64,000 nt of DNA from Raillietiella orientalis (Eukaryota): assembly GCA_036172245.1 (NCBI GenBank), contig JAYWIR010000002.1:2666001-2730000 (forward strand), read 5' to 3'. Numbering within the stretch: position 1 is the first letter of the stretch; the number at the start of each line of letters is the position of its first letter. Positions 8,163 through 61,000 of the stretch are shown here, piece after piece. The translations under genes and the position numbers were made by a program. The notes under the pieces were generated by a model. The model searched no databases. It saw only the letters and a program-made list of their open reading frames with translations, and was not told the origin of the DNA.

Positions 8163-8700
8163 GGCAGATTGCAAGCAGTTCCCTGGAGGCATTGTTCAGG
8201 AAGCGCCCTCAGACGGCATCTCTTGTTGCCCAGGGCCGCACGATCGACGGCCCGCGTCGGCGGCTGTGCGCCTGCGGTCCCGCGCATATCACCATGCGTT
8301 GCGGGTTCGAACCCCACCAAGGGAAGGATCCAAATCGAGAACGGGGAGTGCGTCGTGAGTTTCGATTCCTCTCCTCGAGACGGCGCTGGTTGGCCTTGTA
8401 GACTTCGGGTGCGGCGGCACTGCTGGAGGCAGCCGGAATCCCCAGATGCCCCAATGACTGGCCTGGATTGGAAATTGATCCTCCGAGGTCCTTCAAGGAC
8501 ATCAAGGAGCCCTTCGGGGTTCGCCTCTGGTTTCGAAATGGAGCTTCCCTCCCCTCGGAAAGCGAACCTCCGTGGCTGGTATCATGGAGCTGGCTGATAC
8601 CTCTCCAGAGTGCCAAAAAGAGCGCCACTCCCTTTGGGGAGAGTCCTCCAGAGGAATTGGGAAGCGTCCCTTCGGGGTTCTCTTTAGAAAAGTAACAAGA
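8163..8700 (+). repeat. Module B copy 1: dispersed structured non-coding repeat (B-box-like GGTTCGAACCC, cUUCGg hairpins)
   Basis: Aligns by eye to the reverse complements of 14733-15487 and 26236-26993 (e.g. GGCAGATTGCAAGCAGTTCCCTGGAG; TTTCGATTCCTCT..GCTGGTTG..CTTGTAG.CTTCGGGTGC; GAGCTGG.TGAT.CCTCTCCAGA). Confidence 0.85.
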
Positions 8701-8799
8701 AACAGTCCTCTTGCGGGGAGATCCCTATAATGAAAGAGGGACAACCCGAAGACCAGTCCACTATCAACTAAACAGCAGCTCATCGATCATATGGGAAAA

Positions 8800-10129
8800 G
8801 CTGGAAGAGCAGGCAGAGCCAGCGAGAATGATTCTGCAGATGTAAAAAAAATTAATTCAATGAACAAAAAGATAGGCCGCCATTGAGTGACTTTTGTTAT
8901 GTCGCCTCCTTATTAGCAGCAGCTTCATCCTTCCCTCTTGGAACGATGTAGGAAGTTTTCCTTCATGGATGTTAGCGTCAACTCATGGGACAAGAGTAGG
9001 TAGGCGTGCAGATAGCTCTGGTAGGGCGTGATTGGAACGCTATCAGGACCTGCCGCTACATCCTTGCGCAGCCCCATGAACGCATTTCTCACTTCAATAG
9101 AAATGGCTTCTTGAAATTTTCCTTGATGTTGGCTTTTAACCCTTCGGTGTAGATGCTGCAAGATATTTGTTTGTGCCGTTGGGCACGAATCCTGTCGTCG
9201 AAAGTGCGAAGCATAATGGTGGTAAAAGGATTCTGCAATTCCTTCCGACGTGTGCCGAACTTGACCTTCGTACTGGATGCAGAAGACATCAATGGCGATG
9301 TTCTTCTCCAGCACACCAACTTCTCCTTTGGTATTTTTGAAGACGTATCTGCTCTCGTACTGTTGCCAGTATTTCGAGAGCGAGAGATCTTGGATGTTGG
9401 GCTCCTAATACGCCTCCATTCTCCTCTTCCTGTCGTCAAACTGCAGGTTGCTGACAGATATATACTATGCTTCAACGCGTTCCAGCCTGCCACTCTGTGG
9501 ATGGTAGTGTCCCGCAGTATCGTCTCAATAAGTTCCTGGTGACAGGGATGTGTCTCGGACCAGGCGGGCATGCAGATGAGTGCCGCCCTCGCTTCTGCCT
9601 TCCTCCGAGGGTTTTCAGTTTTCAACGTGAATCGAAGCAAGGGGTGGTCCGCGAGCACGAATGGGATGTCTCGGCAGCCTTGCTCACGATTTACGATATC
9701 CCGGCTGTAGAGGCCATGATCTATCGACTTGTGGCTCGCCGTGAGCCACTGCACTCCGAACAGCGATGTTTGCCTCGATGTGGTCCGTAGAAGTTCACCA
9801 AAAACAGCTGGATGTTTGCGGACCAGGACATGCGCACTCCGACAATTCGGCCGAGTCACGGAGAGATTTCCAGGACGGTGTGTGCGATTTCGTTTTTCAC
9901 GAGAATTGCCGCACCTTTGGTCTTCTTTTGTCCCGCGCTTAGGGATAGCTGGACGTTGTTCAAACTCTAGGATGGCCTAGTGCCCGTGGTCGTGAGTTTC
10001 CTTCAGACAGACGATGTGGTCGCGCTCGATCATTCGCGTAACCAGTTTTCGTTTTCCCTGGTTCCATAACCCGTTTGCATTCCAGGAAGCAATTCTAATG
10101 CTCCTGGCAGACGACAGGAAAGAGGCCAT
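8800..10129 (-). pseudogene. L1/Tx1 ORF2 fragment (AP endonuclease plus start of reverse transcriptase)
   Basis: MASFLSSARSIRIASWNANGLWNQGKRK..IVCLKETH; ORF fragments 9089..9859 and 8925..9314; QWRPI motif. Confidence 0.8.
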
Positions 10130-10135
10130 CGGACT

Positions 10136-11609
10136 CTATGTTCCTTTTCTGTTCTTTCTCTTTTGTCTCGGGGTGCTGACTATTTTCCTTTCGGATGATA
10201 GTCTTTCCCTTACTTCACTTTCTGATTCTCTAATTTCTGGATTTTCCTCTTCCTGCAGTTGGTATGCCGCTCTTGCCATTTTCCTTGCTGGCATTGTTCC
10301 TTGTTCGCAAATTTTCAGCTTTGCTTCACCTGGTTTTTCCTCAATTTCGTAACTTGATTTTTCATCAACGAGAGTTTTCTGGATCTCATCCTGCAGCTCG
10401 GCCAGGCGAAGTGCATATTTTGCACGTTCCACCTCCGTATTGCTGGGACAGATCTTCTCCGTGAGCATTGCCACTTCCTGCAAATACTCTTCGGCTTTCT
10501 GCTTTTCAGTTTCGGCAGCACGGCTTTCCTGTTCCTCCCCTACAGTCGGAATAGCAAGTTCTCCTGCTGTTACTTGTTGCTTCCTTCGTTGTTGAGTTTT
10601 CTTTTCTTGTTGCTTTTGCGGAAGTTCTTCTTCTGCTATGACGCTGGTTGGAACCTTCTCTTGCTGTTCTACTTTCTTCCTTTTCCTTTCCTCTACTTCC
10701 GGTAAAGGTGGTAGTCCTCTGGCCACAAACCAGCCTGAATACTTCTCTCATTCCCTTTTTCGGTGACCTTCCAGCTTGCAATGGTAGCATTGCGGAGGTC
10801 TATTGCATTCCTTTATTAAGTGACCACTTTATTACTCTGTCCGCATCTGAAACATTTTGCCTTGGGGCAGGCACCCATTCGGTGTCCAAACTCCTTGCAA
10901 CCTGCACAGAAAGTAGGTTGCAGTCTATACCGTGTTGTGACATCCTACGAGTCCTGGTCAATTGCTATGATGCCTGGAATTTTGGCATCGGCAAACAACT
11001 TAACTTTTACTCTTGCTTCTCCCGAAAAAAAATTCTTCCATATGGTTGCGGAACGCAACCTCTTGGACCTCCCCATATTGTTTTCTTCGTTGTATGACAA
11101 TGTATTTCGATGAGATAGACCGCTGTGTTGGTCAGCTCTCTGGGACCTTGCAACTTCCTACCGTTTATGGTGATTCCTTGCTCGATCAGGAATTCTCTTA
11201 ACTTCTCGTCGGGAGTACACACCGTAAACTCCGTTGCCGAGGAGACGATTGCCTTTATCTTGCTAAAATTAACGTTGAGTTTGTGAAACGCTACATACAC
11301 GTCTCGAATATTCCCGAGACGCAGCATTCCTGTTTTCAAGGTGGCCTGCTTTACGTCCTGGTCAATCTTCCAGACTGGCTCTTCTTCTTTCCCCACTTTA
11401 AACACCGCCGGCCTTATTATGTCTTTTTCGACCGCCGGAGCTGCTGCTGCCACCACCTCATAGGACAGTGGCTGCTCCGGGTCCTCCCTTGGCCCCACCA
11501 AGGCTCCCTCCTTGGAGGGGCCTGGTTTCCCCAAATCCATGGGTCTGGACGTGGATGGTCGTTCCTTCGGATAGTCCACCTGCAACGTTGACGCCTTCGA
11601 TGAACACAA
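10136..11609 (-). pseudogene. L1/Tx1 ORF1 (ZCCHC3-like nucleic-acid-binding protein with 3x CCHC zinc knuckles), frameshifted
   Basis: RYRLQPTFCAGCKEFGHRMGACPKAKCFRCGQS/GHLIKECNRPPQCYHCKLEGHRKRE* (10750-10935), followed by a Glu/Lys-rich coiled tail (ORF 10136..10726). Confidence 0.8.
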
Positions 11610-11727
11610 AGCGGGACGTAGAATAAGTAGATGGTGACGGCAATTGCTATTAAAGCACTACACCTGCTGCTTCTCAAAAATATCTTCCCGGTTCGTGAGA
11701 GCAATTAAGCACCTCGAAGCCAGGACT

Positions 11728-11975
11728 CATACTCGGGTGGAACTTGCCGGTATCCTGAAAAGGATGCAGAGGACTCCCTCCAGCTCCCGGTGATCCTTTC
11801 CCTAACCTTCCCAATTTTTTTGTATATATTTTTTTGTTTTATTTTTATTTCTGTTTGTCCCTTCCCCCTCCGCTGCCGAGGAGAACCTTGCCGGCCTGCG
11901 TGCCGGTTACTCGACAGGTTCTGAACATTTTCGGACAATGTAGGGCCGATGGCCCTATACGTGTTTATTTTCTTA
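11728..11975 (-). repeat. Module A copy 1: retroelement 3'-end-like repeat (stem-loop, A-rich tail, downstream structured segment)
   Basis: Direct repeat of 22709-22960; the core 11821-11950 vs 22801-22930 is nearly identical. Confidence 0.9.
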
Positions 11976-12021
11976 TAATGAACATCTTGACCTGGCAGGT
12001 TGATAAACCGATAATCTGAAA

Positions 12022-14734
12022 AGTTACGCGCGCCCTCGGGTGGCGTGGGCGGTGTTGAAGAGCTTCGTGAGGTCCCCATAAGGAGGTTCTTTCCGATCCA
12101 GAGCACTTTTGCGAAGAGGGGCGGGAAACGAGAATCGACTCCTTGATGAACACGTCTTCCCGGTCGAGATGAGATGAGGGTCGAATGACTTGTCAGTTGG
12201 ATCTTCCCCCCTCGGAACTCGGAAATCCAAGCAACAAGCGCGCATGGCAGGTGTGATCACTCCGGTCCAGCAGTTTCTTCTACGATGACCAGGAAGCTCA
12301 GTCTCTGTGGTATCCAACGGAGAAACCGGAGAGTTTATCCGGCGCCTTCTGCTGCACCAATTTCCGGGTTGGGGTGCCGGAGGGAACCTGACTCGTCGAC
12401 GCCACCGTGGGGGACGCCGCCGTCTGGGACGGAGCGCTCGCTGCCGAAACCTCCTCGAGGGTCGCGCGGGGCTTCTGCTGCCTCCTCAACCTTCTCCGCA
12501 GGTGCCGTGCTCCATCCCGTTTGCATCTTTTGGGAGCAGGTGCACTCTCGTTCTTTCCATGCCCGGAAGGAGAACGATATCGTTCCAACTCCTGCAGGGC
12601 CAGCTCGATGTCCTTCCAGCGCCCGGCTTCTGCTCTCTGCCGTCGGCCCGACCTTCGCTGGCCGCCTCCTGCTCCCGAGAGACTGCCGTGCGCGGATCGG
12701 TTACCCGCTCCAAGGCTGGTGACTCGCCGAGGATCCATTCCCCGTTTGCGGATGCTGCTGGTGATGAGAAACCGGAGAGCATCCTCGGTACGGAAGGGCG
12801 GCGCTCCACGAATCTTGGCGCGCCGCTTTAGATTCTGATGCTCATTGGCAGGAAGAGCATATTGTGGGAACGACCTTCCCTTGACTCGTTTCGAATGCCA
12901 ACTCGACAGAGATTGGGAGGGAAGGGGAAAAAGGGGATTTCTAATGCCATCCTTGTTCCTCTCCTTTTGCCTTCATTTCGTAACCTCGGCACAGGAGTGT
13001 CCCTTGTGCCGCGGGCAATGAACTTACTCCGTGATGACCTCCTGAAACATCCTCTCATTTCTGCAAGTACCCATACATCTTCTTTCCGACTGCTGCTTCC
13101 ACGTGTTCTGAGCTTCTCCCCAGAACCTCCTTCCATGTGGTACTCGTTTTCCTCTTCTCTTCGCGAAAGTGACTTGGATTCCTGATCACGTCGCGTTCCC
13201 ATGGAATCTCTGAAGGAGTACTTCCGCTTCATCTTTCCGATAGGCAGCCGCCACTCTCTGGTTACCTCGTCAGCTCTGCAAGCCAATCAGCAGAACCAGA
13301 CCATCCAAGCATTCCTTCCCTATACCTGACTAGGCTGGAAGTGTCTGTTAAGAGGCATCTGCAAGAATGGAGGGTGCGTTGCTATGCCCGCTCCGCTTCT
13401 GGAATTTAAATTAGCGGGAAACTTGATGTTGGAATGGCGGTGAGTTGGGTGAACGGCAGATGGCTGTGGAGGTGGAAAAATTCGATGCGATTCCACAGTA
13501 TTCAATTTATACATAAAATCAAATAGATATTTAATTCAATTAAAGAGATTACCTGCCTACGTTATCCATCGTAGTATAAAGAATTGATGGCTTTCTATTC
13601 GATTAAGCATGCTTTATGACACCAGGCATTTTATACAATATTATGGCCGCCAATAGGATTATTAACCTCAACCCAGTCAGTCCTATGAGGATTGGATTGG
13701 GGTCAGTTCAGCGGTTTCACGCACGTTTAGTCGCATCACATCATCGTCCACTGATAAAAAAACACAAAAGGGCAGATGACCCTCGAAAAACGAAATGTTT
13801 ACGAATTGGCAAGAAATGCAGGAATGCTGGTTCGAGTTCCACATCCCGCGGTTTGTGTTAAAGAAGTGGAAGGTTCGAGGCAGCATTTGATTGAGCAATG
13901 TTCCAACAAAGTGGGAATGAAAATTCTGGCTGAAACTCCAAAACTTCCATGCGTGAGCAGTCCTGTAACAACCAGAGATGTGTGCGGAATGATGCCCGAG
14001 TGTTATACCACTCGTGCAATCTCTTTGTTCTGGAGGGAGCGATCACACTGTCTACGATGGTCAGCTCGCTAGGAAATGGACACCATAGAGGTGAGATGAG
14101 ATGATGGACGGATCTGCTCCAATTCGACATTTGCAAGAGATGAGTCAATACGTTTGGTACGAAGGAGTCAGGAGAAGACCAGGTAATTCACCTCTTGGAA
14201 ATCTCACTGAGATGTTTCTTGTGGGGAGTGACTTGTCGTCCCAGTGACGGCATGCGCGATAGGCGCTGGTGAGTACGAGGTGAGGGGAAGGGAGGGAGAG
14301 GTAGACTTCCATCTTAAGAGATTACGTTTGGGTGAGGTGGATCGCTTGCCATCTCACTCCACGTAGGAGGTTCCCGGCTGACGTTAAGAAACTGCCGATT
14401 CCGTGCTAGCACGGGTTTCTTCATCTCGCTACGATCCATCTGAAGAACGGAAAACAAAATCATCATGCCAAGGTCGGGAGAGATGGCTAGTGTAATCCAC
14501 CGAATCCTGTACCACTTATCTGGAGAATATGACTGGCCACAATCACAGCTGACTTCCATTTATCCGTCCTTCTGCGACCCATCAAAGTCCTCGTTCCATC
14601 CGGTGCCCCGTTCGAAGTCCCGGCTGGAACCACTGCACAGTTCCTCAAGGAGTACTGGGTAGCCGTTCGCCTCCTTTCAGAGGGCTCACGAAGCTCTTCG
14701 GCACCGTCCGCGCCACCCGAGGTCGCGTGTAACT
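12022..14734. repeat. Segment bounded by imperfect inverted repeats (arms 12022-12071 and 14685-14734, weaker homology extending ~200 bp inward)
   Basis: AGTTACGCGCGCCCTCGGGTGGCGTGGGCGGTGTTGAAGAGCTTCGTGAG is the near reverse complement of CTCACGAAGCTCTTCGGCACCGTCCGCGCCACCCGAGGTCGCGTGTAACT. Confidence 0.8.
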
Positions 14735-15487
14735 CTTCAAGTTATGGGGGTGACCCCACAGGGATCACCGGAGGGAAAAGTCCATTTCTCTTACTCTGGT
14801 CAGAGAACTCCGGAGAAAATCCTCGCAACGGTTGTCTCTGAAGGGAACCCTCGATAGGAAACTCCTCATTCTCTTCGGAGTGATTCCCTGTACGCTCCTC
14901 ATTTCTTCTCCGAAGGGAACCCGGAAAGAATCTGTTCCTGGAATTTCTTATCCGGAGGGCATCCTCAAAGGGACACCCCTTGTTAATCTCCTAAAGAGAA
15001 CACCGAAGGGATGCTTCCCAATTCCTCTGGAGGGCGCTTCCCGAAGGGAGCAGCGCTCTTCTTGCACATTCTGGAGAGGTATCAGCCAGCTCCATGGTAC
15101 TAGCGACGTAGGAATTCTTTAGTAAAAGGCGAAAGAATTATGCGTTAGAATGGGGGAGAGTCGCTTTCCGAGAGGAGGAAAAATCCATTCTCGAAACCGG
15201 AGAGGAACCCTGAAGGGAACCGGTGCTCCCTGATGTCCTGGAAGGATCTCGGAGGATCACTCACTCCCGGCCAGTCAGCGGGAGCATCCGGTTTCCAGTT
15301 GTTTCCACCAGTCCCGCTGCACCCGAAGCCTACAAGACCAACCAGCACCATCCTGAGGAGAGGAATCGAAATTCACGACCCACGCTCCGTTTTCGACTTT
15401 CATCCCTTCCCGTATGGGATTCGAACACGTAACGCTTCGTACCACGCGCGGGAACCGTAGTTACGAGGCCGCCAACGAGGGTCGACT
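14733..15487 (-). repeat. Module B copy 2
   Basis: Same conserved blocks as copies 1 and 3; B-box-like GTGTTCGAATCCC at 15428-15416. Confidence 0.85.
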
Positions 15488-16906
15488 CTCAGACCCTCCT
15501 CAAGTCTTCCACAACAGCTAAAGGCACTTTCTTTGGTAAGGAAAAGAGATGACGAAAAAGAGAAAACGTGCCGAGGGAAGGTTTCAAAGCCATCTCCGGT
15601 CATGATGAAGAGTTAGGTCGAAAGAATGCCGTTGCAATCAACCGAGGAGGTTGCAATCGCTTTCGACCGAGGAGTTCAAACGGCTCCTCCTCAGTTCCCG
15701 GCCCAGGTTGGGGTGAGAGCAGTACACAACTGGGAAGGGAAGTGATTCGTTGGATGGATGCTCTCCTGGAGTATTATCATTTCCAGGCAGGGAAGTCTCA
15801 CAAACACAGCATCGCGAGAGAGCATCCCTGAGGAAAGTCAGCCGCAAAACCAGGATGAAGCAGGCAAAACTCCACTGAAGTACCAAAAACAAGAGGTCTG
15901 GATCCTTGTACTGATCCTCGGTCCAATACACCACAACTATATTTAGGATGAGGCAAGACACGCTCGTTCGCTTTCGTCCTTCTGGAATCCACGCAACTTG
16001 CGCAATCCTCCGCTCGCGCAAAGCTTATGCAAACCAGTGCATACTTACATCCAGCACTGTTTGCTCTGAATGCTGCTATCGCAATCAGCACAGGATGCGA
16101 TTCATGAGATCTTGGGGAAAATTCACGCTTGGTGATCAAACATCATTGTATCAAACGGAACAGGGGAATCACCTAAGCGATTAAAAATTTTACGGACTCA
16201 GTGGTGATCCTCTACAGATGACCTTCTCCCAGATCATGCTGAAAGTGCTGATGACTTCGAAACATGTTGAAGTGAAGAAACCCATGCAAGTACGGAATCT
16301 GCAGCCAGGAGCACCAGCTGGAAACCTCCTACGTCAGATGAAACCTCTCCCTCACTTCCCCGCATCTCGTGCTCACCAACGCCTATCGTACACGCTGTCT
16401 CAGGGACAGCAAGTCATGCCCCACAAGAAGCATCTAATAGAGATTGCTGCGAGGTTTTTCTGACTCACTCGTGCCAGTCCGATGTTTACTAAGCATCACT
16501 GCTGCAGCTGGTGCCGAACACGCACCGGGACCAGTCCGGAGGGATGTCCTTTTTCCAATCGCCGGACTCGGACTACTGATCTTGCGGGCGTGCCTCGGGC
16601 GTGGCTGCATTCACCCTCGTTAGGCACCATCCTTGCCCCATGAGAAAGTCCATAAAATTTGCCGAGTGGTCTCGGTCGCAGTCCCAAGGCATCGATGATC
16701 GTGACACCTACGCTTTCGAGGAGAGAAAGCAACGAGCCCAGCATGCGCAGATTCGGAGATCTGCCTCGAGGGGCGCCGCGGGAAGACTCCCTCCGCTAAG
16801 GGAGCATTGTAAGAAGGCGGGAGAAAGCCTTCGCGATTCAGATGAATGCGCATCCTGTTGTCACGGAAGCGACGTCTTCCTTGGCCGCTGAGAGGCGCGA
16901 CGGGAG

Positions 16907-21385: not shown

Positions 21386-22708
21386 GGGTGGAGCGTAGTA
21401 GCAGGATATTCTGATAAAGTGTCAGCCTCTCCTTTCGTCCTAGAGCTGGAGTTGCACGCTAGTAGTCTCTCTAAAGACTTCTTGAAAGTGAGGCCACCTT
21501 GTAGCCATCTTCATCGAGACAGCGTTTGGCCCCCTTCGCTTCTCTCGAAGCTCCAGAAACTGGCGGGATGTGACGATGACGCAGATGCAGCATCGCGACG
21601 CAATCGCGACGCCTGCCGCAAGCTCTCCTTGCGTGAATAAACGCAGCATCAAGTGCACCGCCTATGTCTCCCCCGCCAGGGCTGCTCGAAGCACCGCATT
21701 TAATCGAGAGCTGCGGGAACGATACCATCATTACTCATATTGAGCAGCTTGGGGATGCAACTCTCCTGGAAACCAGGTGTCTGCACTGGAATTCCGAGTG
21801 CAGAAACAGTGGGACGTCTCGTTTCCATTGCGACGGGAGCACCGTAGAGTCTATGCACATGGAAGGCATCACGAGTTCTTCGGGGGACACACCAAGCTCC
21901 GCCAGGAATAACAACTGGATCTTCTGCCGTCCTGAGAACGGTAGTGTCGGGCAACCTGTTCGCAAGTGGGCCCAGGAGAACGAAGGAGCCTGGAGATGCT
22001 GCAGCAACTGCTGCACTCCTTCTACAGCAGCCGCTCGCTGCAGGACGTCATTGTGCAGTCCACTACGTGAGCGTGGGCGCAAAGAACCTCCCTAGCCGCG
22101 GCACTGCCCTCCCTCAGGGAGCACCTGGACAGTACTGAGCCGGCCAAATGGGAGGTCAGTTGCGAAATCAGTCAGAAGACGAGGGAACCAGATGGTTGGA
22201 CGCGTCACAGACTCTGCGACTCCAAGTGCCCCACCAAAGGGACTATTGAGCTGAGGTGAGCTGCTGGGAATCACACAGGAGGACCTCGAGTGGACCTCAG
22301 CGCTGAAGAACAGCCGGGCCCTCCCCCTGAAGTGGCAGGGGTCGGCACTTCTGCTGTTGTACTGGGGTCTTCCTTGCAACTCCTGCCAGTCTCATTTGAC
22401 CTGGGGGGATGTGGACCCCAACTTCTGAGGGTGCAAGGAACGGAAATCTTTCCCGTACCTGCTTTTAGACTGTTTCGCTCCGACTCCTGTGGCTGCGTTA
22501 CGCAATGACCCTTGGTTCACCGACGGGACAATCCTGGGACGCCTCTTCGTGCGCGATGCTCTTTCATCTGATGCATCACTAGCAGTTCTTTGCTGCTGCC
22601 CATGCGGAATTGTGGCTGTCTGGGGCTACGCGAGAGGAGGACGACACGACAGAGATGCTATCCGCTTCGCCCTGAGCTTCCTGCGGACGGCAGTTAGATG
22701 ACCCCATC

Positions 22709-22960
22709 CATACTCGGGTGGAGCTTACCGGCATCCTGGAAAGGATGCAGAGGATGCCCTCCAGCTCCCGATGATCCCTTCGTTAATCTTCCCATTTTAT
22801 TGTATATATTTTTTTGTTTTATTTTTATTTCTGTTTGTCCCTTCCCCCTCCGCTGCCGAGGAGAACCTTGCCGGCCTGCTTGCCGGTTACTCGACAGGTT
22901 CTGAGAATTTTCGGACAGTGTAGGGCCGATGGTGCTACACATGTGCGTTTATTTTTTTAT
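22709..22960 (-). repeat. Module A copy 2
   Basis: Direct repeat of 11728-11975. Confidence 0.9.
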
Positions 22961-25900
22961 AATAAACGTCGCGGCGTGACCGAGTAATAAACCGAGCAGC
23001 TCTCTTCACAGAGGAAATCCCTTTGCAAGGGAACGAGTGACAGTGTTTACCAGCGCACTTGTCCTCCAGCCGTCAAGGAGTCTCTCGACTCCTGTAGTGA
23101 TGCAGGAGAGTTCCCATTCCGCCGGTTGGCTGCTGTCATTCTTTGGCCTTGGGTAAGACGGTGCTGCGGATAGGGGTGTGACGGTTATCTGGGACCACTG
23201 GATTCAGTCCTGCAGGATATATCTCATGGGTTCGCAGAGGAGCTTCCGCAGGGGACTGGTTTCTCTCGGGAGCACTTCGAAGGCCGCAACCCACTAGTGA
23301 AGGAAGTTTTCGGGGTCGTTTCCAAGCAGAAAGGGAAATCTTTCCATGAGAAGCAGCGAACCAGAGAGCGACCTCCGAAGGAAATAGCGCGAGGGCACGC
23401 ACCCTCAGAAGAGCTCTTGGAAACCTTGAGCATCGGGGATGGAGTTCTGCGTTTGCTCACTATCCTCGCTGCAGTCACTCAAAGGTAACCTTTCCTGCAC
23501 GCTATGCCATCGTCACTTGAGGTTGGTGGACTCTGCGGTGCCTGGAGGACTGGGAGAATCAGTGACGGCATAGTTGGCCTCTCTTGCTTTTCTGGTCCTA
23601 GCTGGCAGTTCCTCTACTTGGGTCGCTACCGTAAGGTCTCCCGGACAGCACCTCTCGATACGAATGCTGCAGCAAGTTGACTCTGATCAGGACCACCCGT
23701 TCGTTTCCTCGAAGGGTGGCCGCTGCTGACGTATCAAGTCCAGAGCTTCTGGGGAGTGGGCGCCTTTCTCGTAGAAGAAACGCCACTGCCAACCAAGGTC
23801 CCAGAGGATACAGACGGATTTTATTCCCTGTTTCCCACGAGAGATGGCAGTGGGATGACACGTTATGTAGAGAAGGATTTCCCTATCGGTGCAGCAGCTA
23901 GAAGCGCTGAGTCATGTGGTGTAGGGGTCGCACGATGCGATCAACCTCTGATTGCCTCTTCGAGAAGGACCGTTCGCAACGGACCCTGAGAGCGCCGCCG
24001 GGCAGGCAGAACCGGCAAAAACGAAAAGGTTGGCTTTACATTTTCGACAGGGGGATCCCCAGCCTGGACGCGCAACATTACGAAAGCGGGAATGAGGCTC
24101 GAGTATGCCAAGCCCCAGAGCCATTACACCTGTCGTCAGCTTCCCACACCGCGGCAACCTCAGCGTGGCAATCCAGCCCGGAGCTTCTTAGGTTGTTGAT
24201 GTGGCTGACTTCAGAGCATTCGTGCAAGTCTCCGGATCAGGAAGAAACCCGAGGTCATGGGGGAAAAACGGCCTCTGCTCCGCCCTTTTTCTTCCCTGGC
24301 GGCCGAGGAGTGCTGGAAAATTTATCCGCGTCCCTATCGTTCGGGAACGACAAGGATGCATCAGGAGAGGGGAGAGAGGTAGGTAGCAATGTGTTCAGGT
24401 GCCACGCGAACCCCCCCCCCCTCACACTCGCTCTTTGAGAATCCGGCAGAAGAGATGAGGGTCTCTTCTATGCGCAGGATGAAAGTTCGTCCCACCCCAC
24501 CCTTTCTCTCCCCTCCCTTCCTCTCTCCCCCAAAGCTCGCTCTGCCTCCAGAAAGGCCGCGAGTCGCTTCGACTTCGGCCGAAGCGGGCAACGGTGCCAC
24601 CTCGGTGGCGCTCACATTAAGGAGAGATGAGGAACGTCCTGCTTGCGAGGCGCCACTCACTCGACTTTCCCCTCCTCGGGGTCACTCGGCACGCACGCAC
24701 GCCCGAGGGAGAGCGCACTCGCTGCCGGGTTCCTTCCACGCGTTGGTGTCCCGAGAAGCTCCGGTAGAAGCGTCAGACTCCTGAGGAAAGACGAGCGGAA
24801 GTCTCCTTCCTCTCCTGCGAAAATCGATTGTAGGTCTAATAGGTCAACGCAGGCGCCTGGCTAGCCTAATCGGGCCCGTTGGCATCGCGGAGGGGAGTGG
24901 CCATCTCTGGAGTTTTTTTCTTGATGGTTCCCTTCCCTCTGTTGTTCTTTTCCCCCCGAACCGTGTCCCAGAGGCACTAATGATCGTTCTGGGGGAGGCA
25001 TGGGGTGGGATGAGAACTTCCCTACCCCGCCCCGCCCCGCCATGCCTCCCTTTTTTCCGCTCCCGCCCCTTCCAGCCGTCTGCCAGCGACGCGTTCGAAG
25101 AGCACACGCGCGTGAGGAAGGGGGGGGAAGTGGGAAAGGGAGGAGGAGGAAGAGGAGGAACGGAAGGAGCATTCCCCTTCCGTTTCTTCTCTGCGCGCAA
25201 GCTCGGGGCAGTCTGAAATCTCGCGCTTCCGGGGGGACAGAAAGAGGGGAAGGAAGGGAGAGCGTCAGTCAGACGGCCCTAAGAGTCACGGGAGTAGCCC
25301 ACGCCCGCATCGGGACGCGAGGAGCCACAGCTTCCTCCTTGGAACCTCCGTCCATTCCGCGGAAGATAGGGAGAAAAACAGGGGAAAGAAAGGCAGCTGG
25401 GCGCCCTTCGAGCTGGCTCTGCCGCTGCAGAAAGGCTCCTGTTCCCACCCGCGTTCATTCCCTCCCTCTTTCTTCCCCCTCCATCTCGCGAACGGAGCGT
25501 AAGTTCCTGTGCAGACCGGTAACAACCGAGGAAAAGGGACATCTTTGGAGAAGGCGGCCATGGCGATCCACCACGCTGGGAGGGGGCTCTCCTCCAGGGT
25601 AGTGGATCCGTGGCGCGAACGCCCCCTTGCCCGCTCCGAGGGGAAGCCCCTGCTCTCGCTTCTCGGACCCCTCCCGAGAAGCGGGAGCTCTCCCAGGAAG
25701 ACTCCCCTCTCTTCACCCCTACGACCCTCCTCCGTCGTGATGGCGCAGAGTTCCCTCCACCGGCTGCCAGTCGAGTCGGCACGCGGAGCCGGAATCTCGA
25801 ATTTTCGGGAAAAACAGAGAGGTCTCTTCCGCGCGGGGGGAACGTCGCTCCCCCCCCCGCTCCTTTATCCCCTCCTCAGTGGGGTGGCAGCCTCGTAGTC

Positions 25901-26235
25901 CATTCACTCCGAGAAGGCCCGCTGCTTTCACGGAGACCATCCCGCACCACCAGGCGTCTGCGTAAAGGCTTCGAGAGAGGACCATCCAGGCGCGCGGTTT
26001 CCCTCCTGCATCTTGTCCTACCGACAGCTTCCACGGGTCTTCCCTCCTGATTTCGCCGAGGCTCGGAAAGAGGAACCGGCCTGTCGTGCCTCCCCCGCTG
26101 ACGGTTGCATCCTCGGCTCCTCACCCTCAGCGCGGTCCGAAACAGCGGCCGAAGAGACAACCGTTCTCTGCCTGCCTCCTTCCTCGGTGGCCGTCTCAAG
26201 CCGTCCGAACCTCCCTCTGCACTGTAGCTGGCTGC

Positions 26236-26993
26236 CTCTTCAAGATATGGGGTGCCCCGGGAGGAGGCCACCCTATTAATCCAGGAAGGTTCCGGGGGAA
26301 AGAGTCCTTACCTCTCACGCTTGGTAGGGAACTCCGGAGGGAATCTTCGCCCTGATTACCTGTGGAGGGAACGCTCGATGGGAACCTCTTCCTCATTCTC
26401 TCCGGAGGGATTTCCTGGACGTTCCTGATTTCTTCTCCGAAGGAAACCCTCAAAGGGACCGCTCATCCTTGAAGAATTCCCAGAGGGACGCTTCCCAATT
26501 TCTTTGGAAGGTGCTCCTTAAAGGAAGCAGCACGCTTCTTGCACACTCTGGAGAGGCATCAACCAGCTCCACGGAACGCAATGGAGGGTCTTCCCCCAAG
26601 GAAGGAGGTCGGCTACATCTTCACAACCGGGAGGGGAACCCCGAAGGGCTCCCTGATGTCCTGGAAATACCCCGGAGAGTCAAGTTCTAATCCCGGACAG
26701 TCAATGGGGATATCCGGGGTTTCGGCCTTCCACCAGTGTCGCCGCACCCGAAGCCTACAAGGTCAACCAGCGCCGTCCCGCGCAGAGGAATCGAAACCCA
26801 CGACACACCTCCCGTTCTCCGCCCGTTCTCTCCCCATCTAGGATTCCAACCTGCAACTCCTAGTGTCACATGCAGAGACCACAGGCGCACGGCCGCCGAT
26901 GCGGGTCGTCGATCGTGCGTCCATGGGCAGCATGAGATGCCGTCTGAGAGCGCTTCCTGAACAATGTCTCCAGGGAACTGCTTGCAATCTGCC
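26236..26993 (-). repeat. Module B copy 3
   Basis: Same conserved blocks; degenerate B-box GGTTGGAATCC at 26851-26841. Confidence 0.85.
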
Positions 26994-43940: not shown

Positions 43941-46336
43941 CTATTTGCAATTGTCACCCATAGCGGCTGCAAAGAAAATACATTATGCACTGCAGAGGGA
44001 ATACATTGCACGGCTATGACCCCCCAGAAAAAAAGGAAAAATGAAGAACAGTTATTTCCAGAGACAAAGTATTACTTAGGGACATCACTGACAATATTCA
44101 TTGGAATAAATGAATAAATAAATAAGCAAACCATTACGAACATAACGCCTAAAATGTATTCATCAATCCACAACACTGATGGCCATAAGAAGTGTATTAA
44201 GCAGTAAGTTCATCATTAGTTGCATTTACTTAAGAGTGCATTCCATGAAGTCTTCTTAAGTCTACGATAACGGTGCGACTAAGAACATACACTGTACTGC
44301 CTTACCAAAAATATTGTATATTTAAAAAAAACTTATAAAAGACATGCAGCAACCTTGGAACACATGAAAAAAAAAAAAAAAAACACCGTGAAAGCTTCTT
44401 TGGTCGCTCATTGCACACACACGCTGCACGTACATTTTATTCTGCTATAGGCATTCCGCGTTCAGAATTCGCCAATTACACAAACACACATGTACACAAA
44501 TTTCCCATTTGTACGGGTCAATACGTGGGGAAACAAAACAGTGCAAGGAGAGCATCCTTCAGAAGCAAGGAACGTATCTGCACCCCTCTCTCACAGCACA
44601 AAGTATACGGAACACAACACTCACAGAAGAGGCTTAAGAGACCATCGATAAGCAGACATCGAAAACACGGAGAGTCCAAGAGGTTCAGCGACTTTCGTCA
44701 ATACCAAAAAGACAATACAGCTGCGTTGGCACGAAAACTTGCGGAAGGCAAAGGTGCCTTCCATCAAACACGCAAGAATTCTTATTTACATTTTTTAACT
44801 GATAATCCCATGAACCGGAAATAAAAACAGAGGAAACCCAAGATACACAATACATCGAAACTTCAATGAATTCCAGGGATGCAGTGAAATCCAGGAATGA
44901 ACACCTGCATGTGCGAAAGCCATGAAAACACATGCACACATGAAAACCGCATCAACAACTGCTGTGACCACAGCTTCAAGAAACTCTGGCGATTTCAAAC
45001 GGGAGCGCAAATAGGATCGACCACGCTCGATTCACATCGAGAAAGGAAGCCATTCCCTTTAGCTAACTCTAATGATAAAAGTTTGCTCCCGGGATGCTCG
45101 ACAAGAGCCCATACACACTGCATACAGGTGATGAAAAAAACGGGAACCGCACACAAGAAGCAATTTACTTTGCAAGCAATAATCCGATCACAATGTGATT
45201 CCACAATTTCTGATCCAATGCTCTTTCTTCACTTCTTTTCTTACTACAAACTGACGAACGTCAAACTCGAATCACTGATTTGCACGGTTTTCGAAATGCA
45301 AGAAATGCGTTCCGAAGACACAGGGGAAAACAATTCCGCCTTCGGAGGAAACAGCACGACAATCTGCGCCACGGAAAATCCGGGGTAACCACGAGGAAAA
45401 AAGAATTTGGGGGGGCAAAAAGTTGCAACGAAATTCGAAAAGGCGTTCCCCTTCAAACCTGACACTATCGTCTACAGAGAAACCGAAGACATCAATTTTG
45501 CTCCACTCTGTGATTTCCGAAAACGAACTCCTCCTGACCGAAGAAGGGTTGCAACCGCAGACAGGCTCCAGGTCCGACATGCATCGCTGTTCCCGAAGGC
45601 AGACCAATCCCGATTCCTCCTCACTGCATGGAACGGGAATTGCGACTTCAAACTTTGTAGGCGAATGGTATACTTTTGCGCTTCCCCACGGTTGCTGATC
45701 AACTCTCAAATCACAGGCTTTAATCGATCAAAACCTTTGGTTTTTCTTTCCCTTGATGGGGGGAGGGGAAGGGAGGGGCAATGTCCATTAAAAAAATTAA
45801 CAGAAGAGCACTTTTTTTTCTTCCTTGAGAACAGGCAATCTATCCTAAAACAGCTTCAACAGATAAGCAGCAGGGATGAGTCTTCATCAATAAGGAAACG
45901 AAAATGAGCTGAGAGAGAAACACCTCGATGCTTCCAGATGAAAAACGAATGATTTCAGGCTAATATGATTAAAAAAAAAAAAAAAAACAAGAGCTACAGA
46001 GTCGAACAACGTTCAAAAATTCATATTATATAAAACATACGGAATTCTGAAAATCTTTCAAACTGCTAATTGTGTGTCCACACCTTTCTTACAAATCCGC
46101 GAAATCTCTCTGGAAGAAAGTCGCAATCTCGTGGAAAGAAAAAACCTTAATCCAGTTCCAATGTGCTCATTAAGGAATTTTTCACGTACACGACAGAAAG
46201 GAGGTGCAAACTTGAAACGGAGCCATAAAAGGCTTACTTTAAATGATACCTTGACCACATGGTCACATGCTACATTGATAGTCAGTCCAAGCCCTAAGGA
46301 CACACATTACTTCTCGTGCTTGGGCAAATGACTTAC

Positions 46337-55519: not shown

Positions 55520-58498
55520 GCTCAATTTAAACTTTGTAACAGCACAAGAATTAACATAAATGCATGAAGGCTAAAAAAGTACAAGATCCAATTAATTTCA
55601 CAATCACACAAAAAGTTTAATTTTCAAATCCAAATCCAGACTATTTAAGCTAGTTCTGGGAGCCTACCACAGTAAGATAAGAAAACGTTAATAATAATGT
55701 TACATTTTACTAAAAAGCAATCTATAAGTACTTTGTTGATGGTTTTTTAAACCAACAAAATGGCTAAAGGCTAATGTCGACCGAGAATTTTATTTATAAA
55801 CATCCAATTCTGAATTGAACAAACATCTCACTGCAACCACTTGCGAAGATACACTACGAACAATACGTTACATAGAAAGGCATGTACAATAAAAACGTTG
55901 CTTTATGATTATCACTAACATGGCACAGGTATTTCTTGAGCTCATTGATACGCATAAGCACAACAACACACGTGACTTCTTTGATGTTTCACGATTTAAT
56001 TTCACTTTTTTTCTTTTTTACACCTGTTCCATATTTTGAAACAAAAGTACAGATATAATGCATCAAATATTTTAATTCCATTCATTTCATGCAATCAATA
56101 GTTGGCAAACATCATTAAATGCATAAATTCTCCTACCAGACTTTTAAGTTAATGAAAAAGTGCTGAATTTTCGACCTAATTTTAAGTGCACCTACTTTAA
56201 CGATAAAAGATTTGAGGAGAAATCTTCAGTAAATCTCAAAAATGATCATCCATGGGGGTTTCGGTTGAAACAACTTATTTCGGCAAGAATCAAAGTTGAG
56301 TTCGACAGAACCCAATTGAGAATAGGTTAACACATGTACACCAGGTAACTCGGTACTTACAATAAGGGGAAAATGAACTTCTTAAGAATCATGTCGGGGT
56401 ACATGTAGAGCACATTTGAAAATCATGCTGTCACAATTACTCCATGAATGACAAGGTTGATTTATGCATTTTCCATCATGTTTACTACCTCGATGGTTTC
56501 GCAAACAAACGCGCTACATAAACGCTACTCTGTCTGTTGGGATTACTCGTGTCCCCTACTAACTTCAATACTAACGCAGGCTGATAAATCTCAAGGGCTG
56601 CTTCAATGTAAACAAGGCTATTACAGCATTACTTCTTATTTTGCAACTCATTTGGAACACTCCCCAGAGCATAAAACGAACGAATCTCAGGTGCTCCAGG
56701 ATCGCTCTTTCTAAACAGATACCAGAACACACACACAATCTACACATTTAGCATGCAAGAAATTTGCTGATAATTTTGACATCAGAATTAGAGCAATCAT
56801 AAAGGCAATAGGGGAGCAAAAGAGTTCCGGAAATCGTTCACGGATTCTCCGAATACAAACGTGGATCCTAATTACTTCCCGATTGCTTTAAGATTCAATT
56901 GAGTTCATCTTGGGTTTGCTGAGTATTCACCATAGGGAAAGTGTGAATTTAGTTTACTTGCGTAGATATGCCTGTGTTCTACATTAAAAAAAAAAAATCT
57001 ATTCTATAGGGGGTTTAATATCTAGGTAACAAGTACATACAAGAATTGCGATGCAATAGTTTAAAAAATATGCAGTAGTTCAAATGGATAATATATCCTG
57101 TCAAATAAAATACAGGTAAAATACAATAGTTTCAGGATTTGTTCCGAGCAAACTTTCGTGGTGCAATGGGCTATACGGTATAAACCTGTCCTCAAGCAAA
57201 ATTTATAAAATGAGCCACTTAACTCCAATTAATGTACTACACTAGAAAAATAGTCACATGCCGGCCGGTAAATAAAAATAAGAATGTATCAGAAAGCCAT
57301 TAAGTTTTTACCCAAAACATTTATTCTAGGTTTTTGCAAAACTGCTGGTGACCACGACAGTTGAGAAGTTGGAAATCTTGCTCTTATCAGCTTTCAATGT
57401 GACGCAAATTCATCTAAGCATGCAAGTGACCTGAAATTTTTAGATGGTTTTAAAGCTTCATTACGTTTCCTTTTCGTAATAAAGCAACAAAATCTTATGA
57501 ACTGTTTCGGTAAAACGGGATGTCTTTGAATAAAAAATTGAACGTGTGACCACCAGGAATTTGAATAATTTGTTCTATATTTCCGATATTAGCCTTTTTA
57601 ATGTGCAATGAGATTAGTTATCCGTTGAACCCCAAGATAAAGGCACACATATGTTATCAAGGATTTACAATTGCCCACCAAAGAAAAAAAAACAGTAGGA
57701 TCAGATAACTGCTGCTGATAAAAATATTCCTAATTCCTAATTACCAGTTGTGACACGTGCAAGGGAATACAGCATATAGACTGCTCATAGATAACTCTGT
57801 TGTAGTGAGCACTCTATGATGAAAGTGATGTGCCTAATGAAAGACAAGTTTGCAGTCATCCTATAAAATATGCTTGAAATGCATTTTTTTTTTTGAAAAA
57901 CCCAAAAGTTTGATACGTGTTAAGATACTCTGCTCAACCGAAGCGGGCAATCAACTTGGATATATGCTTTCCCAGATTGTGTGCAGATTGTTTCCTCTGA
58001 TCTTCGGTCCATCTGTACAAATCCAAGGGAATTCTTGCCCTGTACGTTGCTTTCTGAGCAGTACATTGGTTTTTACGAAACACGTTTGGAATACGTGATG
58101 GAATTTCGAGCCACTTTTCTATCTTGATTCAGTTATTGCTCGGTTCATGTCCTTTTTTGATTCACGGGAAATTGCAGGAATTTGTGGTAAAACCACCAGT
58201 CACCAAATGCTCCACAAAGCCTCTGTTGATGAATGAAAAAACATGGAACTGAAACTTATCATTAATAGCAACTGAAAAAATCTTTCGATGAAACCATTAC
58301 GGGAAAAGTCATATGCTTAAAGGAAAAGAGAAGTAGGATTTCAATTTGTTGGAATTCGCTTTTGAAGATACATTTGAGGGCAAAAGGGATTCTCAGCAGA
58401 AAGCATTCAAACCAATCAATCAGACTGATTATCGAAATAGCTTCAGCATTATGTCACAGCTGTCTTATCACTCCGAATGATCTCGGGATCATGATGGC

Positions 58499-58798
58499 GG
58501 CATTCAACAATCTCGCAGTCATCCTCCAACACTGAACCCGACGGAAGCAGGAATGAGGTCTACCGTCCCAACCATGTTCTTCTGACGTGCAACGCTACTG
58601 AAGAACCAACATACGCCTTGAAAAGGCACTTCGACATTTTCAATCAGCAGCACTCAACAGTCTCTCTGCCATCCGCTAACACTTAGCTCGACAGAAGAAG
58701 GAATGAGGTCTACCGTCCCAACCATCTTCTCCCGATGTGCAACGCCACTGAAGCACCAACATACGACTTTGAAAGGCAATTCGAAGCTTTCCATCGGC
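58499..58798 (+). repeat. Tandem duplication, two copies of a 150-bp unit
   Basis: GGAATGAGGTCTACCGTCCCAACCAT at 58550 and 58700; the units align without gaps. Confidence 0.9.
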
Positions 58799-59149: not shown

Positions 59150-61000
59150 CTTTCAAGAAAGTATGGAGATTTTAAGCAGAGTGTACGATGCACGCTTGAA
59201 TGCATCGTACATGTTGCTTTCTGTTTTGTCGAATATTAAGAATTGATAGCCGGCGGCATCTCGTATGAAGTTATTAACAAAAACGGCCGACAGATCCCTA
59301 CATACAGAGTTGCACTTTAGTGACCGTAATACGAGGCATATGTTTTGCGAGCATGGATTTTTTCTCTAAGAACCTAAATGGTACATCAAGGGCTTGATTC
59401 TAAGCACCATAGCTGTATAATTTGCTGTCGTCCTACAACGGCTGCAAACTCCGCTTTGGCGGCCGTGTGGCCACGGCGCCCTCGTGCAGCTCCAGGCGTG
59501 GCGAGTTCGAAGACCCACAAAGGATCGACAACGAGTTGGATACGTCATGGGTTTCGAATCTCCATACGATGGCACTGATGACGACCCAGGCTTCAGATGT
59601 CAACTGCAAGGACACTGCGTCAGCAGGAGGATGCCCCGTTGACAAGCCGGGAATCGGGAATGTACCTTCGGACTCCATCCCAGGAATCACGGAGCCTTCC
59701 GATCTTCCCTCCCTTTTACGAACACCTCGGTTGTGTGACAGCGGTAGAGCCTTGTGAGCTTCCACGTGGTGACGTTGTCAAACCTCTGCGATGCCCCTAT
59801 AGGACGAGGCAACAGCTCTCGAGTGCATGGCAAATCAAAAGAAGGAAAAACCGAAATAAAACAAAACAAAACCTGGAAGGACGTGGGAAAGCAGAAAATT
59901 AATCAGGATTCCCATCACCCTACACAACGCTGCAAACGCCGACGCCTCTATATCTGCACAAGGTTAATGACTAAATGCTCATCAAACCATTGTCAACTAC
60001 GGGGAGGCTTCCGTACCTCTGGACTTCTTTTTCCACCCATCTTTTTGAGCAAAAGTAATTTTCTCCATTTCCTCTGTGGATGATGAACCTCGTGCGTTGG
60101 CGTTCGCAGCTCGTGTAGGGTGATGAGTCTGATGAGCATCTCTCCACCAAGCCATTATGAGAGTTGTACGGCGGCTGCAGTCTTCAAGCGCAGTCTGATG
60201 TAACCCACGCGACGTGCAGCGCCGGGCTTGGCCCCTCGACTCCTCATCTTTCGATTTTCTTCAAAGATCACCTTACTGGCGTTCACCCGCCGGAAGGCTC
60301 CGTGATCTCCATGCTTTTCTGTGGAAAATGTTTGCGAAGATGACATTCACTCGAATACCGTCCGAAATCACAAAGATACATTGAAAGGAAAGCATGCAGA
60401 GTTCTTTTACTTCCAAGACGGAGGAAATAAATCGTCCATCATCGAAGACGTATACACACACCTTAAAAGTAAAACAAAAAAAAAATACACTACTTGTACT
60501 TAAAAGGTATTATCGGTGTTCCCCACAAAAAGCAGATAACATTTTTTCCATGTAGCCATCAACCGTTTCAGTGCAGCTGCTATCTCTCTCCATCAACTCC
60601 TGCACTCGTGGAAAGAACCAGCTTTGGTCATGCGAAATAATAAAAAAAACAAAAACATGGCGCTACCCTTCTCGCTGCTTCTCGATCTGGAAAACGTTTT
60701 CCTCATTGGCCTCCCTTCTCCGTTGAGGAAGGAAAGCGGTCGCACAGTGACAGATCAGGAGTATGCAGTGAACGCTGCAACATCTCGAACTTTAATTCTT
60801 CCGGCGCGTGTTGAAGCGGAAAAGTGGTGCAGCCCCAGAGAGGTGGATCGACCCGCCGACCTCCTCCGTCTGGTACCCGCAACGCCTCGCGCACCGGACG
60901 CATATGCTGGCGCCGAGCTTCTGACGAGAGGGAGTCTGCTCGGGTCCCACGCCGACACGTCAGAAGGAGGTGGAAATGAGTGGATTAGCACTCGTCGGGG
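59150..61000 (+). mobile_element. Highly decayed APE/RT LINE remnant
   Basis: Motif echoes in order: IICCRPT (~YRPP), HHPTQR, EDDIHSNTV..EFFYF, FSLLLDLENVF (~LD.EKAFD). Very degenerate; bounds approximate. Confidence 0.35.

Follow-up and report, generated by a model that had tools for sequence, protein, structure and literature searches.

What is the repeat at positions 26236 to 26993 of the 64,000-nucleotide stretch of the Raillietiella orientalis genome analyzed here (contig JAYWIR010000002.1; hereafter, the window), and why does it carry a cluster of CTTCGG motifs? The first-pass annotation had described it as one of three copies of a structured retro-RNA, either a long SINE or a retrotransposon UTR under structural selection. 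We find that the repeat is an old, unusually long tRNA-headed SINE, a non-autonomous retroposon. The account developed below, in which a long tRNA-headed SINE has decayed neutrally and serves as a landing site for L1/Tx1-type LINE subfamilies, is as a whole one that we hold with good confidence.

Comparison of the window with itself bore out the three diverged copies: 8163-8671 aligned to 26993-26484 at 78% identity, 8248-8699 to 15484-14979 at 72%, and 14768-15394 to 26292-26819 at 64%. As first described, they have no intact ORF in common. All ten CTTCGG positions given for the B-box strand were correct (3, 4, and 3 in copies 1, 2, and 3, versus 0.29 to 0.47 per copy expected from dinucleotide content), with 0 to 1 per copy on the opposite strand, and the stem GGGAGCCC-TTCG-GGGTTCCC of copy 3 is present at 26653-26634 (26634 to 26653, minus strand). 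The extents needed revision. The flagged interval does contain a SINE copy, but the element starts near 26905 rather than at 26993; placing the start from sequence, copy 3 occupies 26173 to 26905 on the minus strand (profile positions 2 to 740, head and body without the tail; nhmmer, 600 bits). Copy 1 is a 5′ part at 8249 to 8737 (plus strand; profile 2 to 486; self-comparison and profile search) and copy 2 lies at 14647 to 15484 (minus strand; profile 2 to 761; profile search). Profile searching also recovered two pieces that the list of three copies had missed: a fourth, older fragment at 59451 to 59717 (plus strand; profile 2 to 279; 89 bits) and a 3′ piece matched at 12008-12086 and annotated here as 12008 to 12090 (plus strand; profile 651 to 739), which is probably the remainder of copy 1, with no clean target site duplication (TSD).

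The remainder of the flagged interval, 26906 to 26993 (minus strand), is an 87-nt flank outside the SINE that copies 1 and 3 have in common. This upstream flank (8163-8249 and 26906-26993) is 93% identical between its two occurrences, the only two matches in the genome, versus ~78% between the SINE parts, a difference that points to local duplication in inverted orientation, to gene conversion at a later time, or to constraint on the flank. Other repeats in the window include a 103-nt inverted match (82%) at 14200-14302 and 16343-16445, some distance either side of copy 2; an ~150-nt tandem duplication (82%) at 58497-58798; and, at 45272-45727, a short repeat spaced by ~55 nt, with minus-strand CTTCGG near 45488-45598.

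Across the 210-Mb genome, a first look yielded 3429 candidate copies, and all 40 of the 40 scored matched at 68 to 78% (the query itself aside). Copies selected in three ways (by body, by tail, and by neighboring LINE) define a family unit of ~830 nt, or 890 nt with an extended tail, for which the earlier figure of ~550 to 750 nt was too short; uninterrupted copies measure 670 to 950 nt and are spread over many contigs. The fetched loci gave 190 profile matches, some copies yielding two pieces, and 77 of the 190 pieces begin within the first 20 profile positions. Seven SINE pieces make up 1.1% of 92 kb surrounding tRNA genes, a rough guide to the genome share. Among 29 near-full copies, mean pairwise identity was 0.705 and identity to the majority sequence was 0.817; given this low pairwise identity, which in no pair exceeded 0.78, we take the family to be old and its divergence star-like. 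The conserved blocks, initially called strong, are real yet modest, with the best 10-nt windows at 90 to 92% versus 82% overall. CpG transition rates in the family alignment (0.127 and 0.136) equaled non-CpG rates (0.130 and 0.115), so CpG decay is of no use for dating the family or for explaining the CTTCGG motifs. The absence of CpG hypermutability from the alignment of so old a SINE family suggests that the host may have little germline methylation of transposons.

The 5′ end of the element resembles a tRNA. When the first ~77 nt of the majority sequence was compared with 51 distinct genomic tRNAs (62 genes), the best score was 54.8, versus a maximum of 46.1 in 510 shuffles. The best-scoring tRNA was tRNA-Arg(CCT) (43/73 = 59%), and the head was 61% identical over 74 to 76 nt to tRNAs Asn, Asp, and Arg(TCT), values that are borderline against the SINEBase 60% rule and leave the isotype uncertain. 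This likeness is restricted to the B-box strand and to the 5′ part of the element; within the 64-kb window, ARAGORN identified no tRNA. The B box is the best conserved 10-mer of the family (92% versus 82% overall, rank 1 of 822 windows) and ranked 3, 9, and 4 of 822 in three independently selected groups of copies, a pattern that would fit promoter selection among source copies. The motif GGTTCGAAYCC, given in the first-pass annotation for the repeat as a whole, is exact in copy 1 alone (at 8304), with one mismatch each in copies 2 and 3; in copy 3 it reads GGTTGGAATCC (26841 to 26851, minus strand). Upstream in copy 3 lies a decayed A-box-like motif (26885 to 26895, minus strand; located by sequence and alignment), for which the family form is TGGCCGTGTGG or CGGCCGTGTGG. 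A second B-box-like motif ~55 nt downstream of the first (26787 to 26799 in copy 3, minus strand; placed by profile score and alignment) had a local profile score of 29.6 versus a null maximum of 20.3 and, in global alignment, 39.3 versus 39.2, and is suggestive only of a second, putative tRNA-derived unit downstream of the first B box. Runs of four or more T residues averaged 1.3 per copy on the B-box strand versus 4.3 on the other strand, partly from the A-rich tail. The long-SINE option, Pol III B box included, is supported by the tRNA-like head (59 to 61% over 73 to 76 nt), by the conservation of that box, and by TSDs on poly(A)-tailed copies. Source copies would have been transcribed by Pol III from the A and B boxes of the head, and a LINE reverse transcriptase (RT) would have copied the SINE RNA into the genome.

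The cluster of CTTCGG motifs traces to an internal repeat of the body. Positions 230 to 620 of the profile have an internal period of 38 to 40 nt, composed of 12+28 sub-units around a palindromic CCCTTCGGG core, and the motifs are clustered because this palindromic unit of ~40 nt is repeated in tandem; the stem of copy 3 noted above is one such unit. The CTTCGG hairpins are by-products of this repetition. A structured retro-RNA under structural selection found no support: there was no covariation, paired columns were not better conserved, and CTTCGG decayed at the background rate. A lack of significant covariation among many copies is the outcome that the first-pass annotation had named as refuting its reading, and permutation tests across the 190 aligned pieces found nothing significant. 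The global fold of the majority sequence gave 14852 canonical cells versus 14830 ± 20 in permutations and 328 compensatory cells versus 308 ± 14 (P = 0.075; 190 pieces); a local fold gave 337 compensatory cells versus 329 ± 15 (P = 0.27; 190 pieces), and P values for the local fold and the opposite strand ranged from 0.27 to 0.9. Identity of paired versus unpaired columns was 0.817 versus 0.803 in the global fold and 0.812 versus 0.813 in the local fold, and 16 of the top 60 covarying column pairs were compatible with pairing, versus a background of 24%. CTTCGG remained intact in 27/74, 21/77, 26/82, and 20/73 copies at four sites (22 to 24 expected, hence near neutral), in 33/77 and 26/59 at two sites (above neutral), and in 2/63 at one (far below).

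A functional hairpin array in the source RNA, in which selection acted on the UUCG-capped stems of master copies, favoring stable RNA or the assembly of an RNP, while inserted copies decayed neutrally, is an alternative that we consider unlikely. Majority segment 240-400 folded better than shuffles (z = −3.5), but so did the opposite strand (z = −2.8), and the other four segments were not significant. Hairpin 379 had more canonical pairs than permutations (P = 0.01, uncorrected, 1 of 7 hairpins), hairpin 256 kept its pairing in 91 of 191 changed cells versus 75 expected (P = 0.013, uncorrected, 1 of 4 tested), and by eye the stems at both of these profile positions differ in both arms while pairing in both; the weak signals nonetheless disagree between tests. 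Because the two hairpin signals are uncorrected and mutually unconfirmed, we take inserted copies not to be under pairing selection, and a star-like set of dead copies is compatible with selection on source copies long gone. The 3′ terminal stem is 93% canonical and retained pairing in 20 of 36 changed cells versus 16.3 expected (P = 0.14). The strand bias of CTTCGG would also suit a hairpin array, against which stands the near-neutral decay of the motif at most sites. Rfam gave no match at the gathering score in the window and chance-level matches only over copy 3 (E = 2.7 to 4.7). A viroid- or ribozyme-like reading was likewise discarded, there being no Rfam ribozyme and no covariation. Neutral decay of a SINE with a repetitive body is the reading that we carry forward: its copies have diverged in a star-like manner without selection on coding or base pairing.

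SINE copies were seen to be split by LINE 3′ ends at recurring places, and targeting was tested with queries consisting of LINE 3′ UTRs only. For each search, the loci were the best 30 of 40 scored matches, from 656, 1252, and 1696 candidates, less the query loci (L137, L167, and L197) and near-duplicates (L158, L163, L168, L173, L188, and L213); this selection favored loci similar to a single filled copy, so the shares given below may be higher than those of each family as a whole. For subfamily C2, an antisense SINE follows the LINE in 18 of 26 loci (best 30 matches, deduplicated), 16 of them exactly at profile position 175. Fourteen loci retain both halves of the SINE; in 11 of them the half on the other side of the LINE resumes at 158-167, equivalent to a duplication of ~9 to 18 nt, and the insert measures 398 to 1625 nt across the 14. 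For C1, a sense SINE follows in 18 of 27 loci (best 30 matches, deduplicated), mostly cut inside a CTTCGG motif; 15 of 27 match one of two paralogous 14-mer sites, CTTC^GGAGACAACC or CTTC^GGAGAAGAAAT, and inserts measure 677 to 1612 nt (13 loci with both SINE halves). No C1 copy at the C2 site, or C2 copy at the C1 site, occurred among the loci examined. The background is 3 SINE pieces over position 180 in 92 kb, on the order of 1e-5 for each base and strand. An LTR/TRIM or split-repeat reading had also been considered for loci with two SINE pieces, which turned out to be LINE insertions.

Copy 3 itself retains both kinds of site in the empty state. The C2 target, TCC^ACCAG, lies at 26729 to 26753 (plus strand) with the cut between 26731 and 26732, as defined by 16 of 26 C2 loci and the window sequence, and is adjoined by the CTTCGG at 26748-26753 (minus strand); a further CTTCGG unit at 26425 to 26445 (minus strand) doubles as the second C1 target, CTTC^GGAGAAGAAAT, likewise empty; 5 of 27 C1 loci end at this unit. 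Targeting by C3 is weaker, with insertions in the SINE in 4 of 28 loci, three of them at 653-656. To these may be added L054 and a copy in the window (11728 to 12007, plus strand; sequence comparison), the 3′ end of which abuts the SINE at profile position ~651; another, 5′-truncated C3 copy in the window (21883 to 22995, plus strand; sequence comparison) lies outside this SINE. About seven other C3 ends (L198, L202, L211, L214, L216, L217, and L223) are followed by one other repeat that by eye resembles the SINE internal unit and may serve as an additional target. A fourth site, located in the tail at ATCATCCTAG, was seen at five loci (L237, L252, L257, L039, and L041) in the SINE-side search only.

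C1 and C2 thus insert site-specifically in the SINE, with C3 and the tail sites weaker. Identity among LINE parts exceeded that among adjoining SINE parts (0.85 versus 0.75 and 0.79 versus 0.73), which places the arrival of the LINEs later, and the variable insert lengths (398 to 1625 nt), together with the target duplications, indicate independent insertions. The SINE spread first; related L1/Tx1-type LINE subfamilies then came to land preferentially in this family, each with its own site and strand. In each subfamily, the last bases of the LINE resemble those of the target at its nick. Four off-SINE C2 copies (L175, L177, L178, and L191) are flanked by TSDs of their own, again at TCY^ACCR, which points to recognition of a short motif plus context. 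We propose that the endonuclease of each subfamily reads a short motif, aided by base pairing between the nicked strand and the 3′ end of the LINE, and that the SINE would offer that short motif in thousands of dispensable copies.

Filled copies might instead descend from one or a few ancestral SINE-LINE composites amplified together, with the LINEs as hitchhikers. Similarity to a filled copy was indeed the basis on which loci were chosen, a long SINE duplication surrounds the LINE in L024, and some C1 loci have long overlaps. Yet 5′ truncation points differ widely, TSD lengths vary, the LINE parts are younger, and off-SINE insertions share the same motif; given the variable 5′ junctions, we regard hitchhiking as largely refuted and very improbable, and retain targeted insertion.

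The targeting LINEs are probably of L1/Tx1 type, as judged from domain make-up and the closest solved structure. Less broken relatives encode a CCHC ORF1 and an APE-RT ORF2 that is closest to L1 ORF2p among solved structures. The full-domain evidence comes from a related copy in L134, to which the 5′-truncated C1 and C2 copies are tied via ORF2 C-terminal matches (first ORF2 residue matched, 151 to 588 for C2 and 323 to 490 for C1); the best database relatives of these LINEs are 24 to 32% identical. The dominant young L1/Tx1-type LINE of the genome, family A (L121-L136), has many intact ORF2s and forms head-to-tail arrays with 5.4- to 5.7-kb spacing and a conserved GC-rich hairpin-like terminus, and its insertions seem to fall close to the 5′ ends of existing family A copies. 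A broken member lies directly after copy 1 in the window (8862 to 11657, minus strand; tblastn, and blastn to intact copies), with an endonuclease, the start of an RT, and a putative ORF1 named for its likeness to ORF1 of L123 and L130. Elsewhere, a 5′-truncated family A LINE (L125:4340-7005) lies antisense in a SINE, with an ~19-nt TSD at profile 621-642, and the start of the L131 array adjoins SINE position ~627. Young C-type LINEs in L126 (3170-3600) and L132 (3180-3600) end at the same site, antisense in another coding repeat, and constitute a further subfamily with a different target.

The tail of the SINE takes two forms, a (CAT)n-like end and a hairpin followed by poly(A). In about 20 of the 29 copies selected by tail, the SINE ends at CATCATCC and gives way to unique DNA, without poly(A) and with no LINE behind; a clear TSD at this end was found in only 2 of 32 full-length copies. 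The minority form (26 matches) runs ~50 nt further, via a 7-bp stem-loop, to poly(A). Among 13 poly(A) copies with an intact head, the TSD score reached 10 or more in 2, both with TSDs of 13 bp, versus 0 of 156 mismatched pairs, and 7 or more in 3, versus 5% of controls; one poly(A)-tailed copy, L238, has a perfect 13-bp TSD. The TSDs of poly(A)-tailed copies begin in A-rich sequence, as is expected for L1-type priming, and for this form an L1-type enzyme would prime on A-rich nicks. L236, L238, L241, L243, and L245 form a poly(A)-tailed subfamily with common diagnostic changes in the terminal stem-loop, in which pairing is mostly kept via G-U.

A partner LINE with this tail as a native part was found neither among 30 RT loci (from 150 scored of 3358 candidates) nor among 16 long stretches; a single LINE family dominated both sets, so that other clades may have been missed; a search for Exo_endo_phos_2 gave 4 weak matches in the same kind of LINE array. 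The possibility that all short-ended copies had been cut by a LINE at CATCATCC was rejected, as a LINE match lay within 45 nt in only 3 of 29 tail loci (L038, L041, and L056); in L039 the LINE match starts 68 nt from that end. The CATCATCC end of most copies (e.g., L031-L060) is also the motif at which one LINE subfamily inserts in poly(A)-tailed copies. The CATCATCC ends may represent either an older tail type or internal priming by the machinery of that LINE subfamily.

With most copies ending sharply at CATCATCC and no TSD detected there, one could imagine that the short-ended majority moved without retroposition, as a DNA-transposon- or Helitron-like element with a tRNA-like promoter; the absence of terminal inverted repeats, of a consistent CTRR end, and of a consistent target dinucleotide, and the presence of the same head and body in poly(A)-tailed members with TSDs, make this scarcely credible. 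Just as remote is descent from an autonomous retrotransposon, whether from its coding sequence, since decayed, or from its UTR, the latter being the other option of the first-pass annotation; neither is supported: frames of 120 to 170 codons do occur on the opposite strand of single copies, but period 3 is absent in 12 windows (P = 0.12 to 0.92; 29 near-full copies), indel lengths show no preference for multiples of three (counts of 120, 273, and 135 for lengths of 0, 1, and 2 modulo 3), the 170-amino-acid frame of copy 1 has no Pfam match, and the SINE is not a regular part of the 30 RT loci or 16 long LINE stretches, where it is present only as a disrupted target.

The finding of a structured RNA therefore falls away, and the element is a long but otherwise ordinary SINE; what sets it apart is its use by LINEs. 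The endonucleases may recognize the palindromic CTTCGG units themselves: the C1 nick falls within the motif, and the duplication made by C2 has its end in or next to one. We further offer, tentatively and as a reading that may well prove wrong, the idea that one dead SINE family has acted as a genome-wide safe harbor driving a radiation of L1/Tx1-type LINEs, with at least four sister subfamilies, each having its own site and a 3′ end retuned to pair. If true, this would provide a natural series for target-specificity switching in LINEs and the first set of SINE-targeting LINEs in the open-access literature searched, where no SINE-targeting LINE was found. With closely related LINEs aimed at separate sites of a single SINE, comparing and exchanging endonuclease domains and 3′ ends among the subfamilies would ask what fixes the site, recognition by the protein or pairing between RNA and target, a question that bears on LINE evolution and on engineered tools for site-specific insertion.

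Sequence-specific LINEs mostly hit conserved host RNA genes or microsatellites, and few hit DNA transposons or LTR elements. The system described here has parallels among known SINEs as well as among known LINEs.

On the SINE side, the accessible text of SINEBase (PMC3531059) defines SINEs as shorter than 1 kb (elsewhere also <700 bp), with 175 families spanning 75 to 662 nt, and asks for at least 60% identity to tRNA, 5S, or 7SL RNA over at least 60 nt. The family is below 1 kb and above 700 bp, interspersed rather than tandem, non-coding, and non-autonomous, with a high copy number supported by the 190 profile matches and 3429 candidates; the optional 3′ region in common with a partner LINE was not found in the LINE loci examined. 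Like the tRNA-derived SINEs described there, it has an A/B-box head, a non-coding body, a simple-repeat or A-rich tail that varies within the family, and dispersed copies in high number, and like the CHRS family it contains an internally repeated degenerate motif. Unlike the families of that description, it extends to ~830 to 890 nt, past the 75- to 662-nt range, and has palindromic body units of ~40 nt and no partner LINE tail that we could find (PMC3531059).

On the LINE side, the targets of the Tx1 clade that PMC4494074 describes, in the portion available, are piggyBac, Mariner, Harbinger, and LTR elements, U2 snRNA, and microsatellites: Tx1L inserts in Tx1D (piggyBac), Tx1-Mar in Mariner-N4_AMi, Tx1-9_AMi in Harbinger, and Tx1-8_Crp and Tx1-4_AMi in LTR elements. 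The same source takes more than 20% of flanks being one sequence type as the mark of specificity, a share well exceeded by C1 (18/27) and C2 (18/26), with C3 (4/28) below it. As in those LINEs, an APE-RT element of the L1 group occupies a fixed position of a high-copy repeat in independent, 5′-truncated copies. The available text of PMC8869645 does not mention SINEs as targets. Keno (U2 snRNA) and Kibi and Koshi (microsatellites) of the Tx1 clade likewise insert sequence-specifically in a multicopy target (PMC4494074). The LINEs reported here differ from Keno, Kibi, and Koshi in that their target is a dead selfish element rather than a host RNA gene or microsatellite, entered in its body and tail and not in its tRNA-like head, and from the Tx1 LINEs as described in that source (PMC4494074) in that the target is a SINE, absent from the targets given there, in which at least two, and probably four, sister subfamilies occupy different sites and strands of one and the same element.
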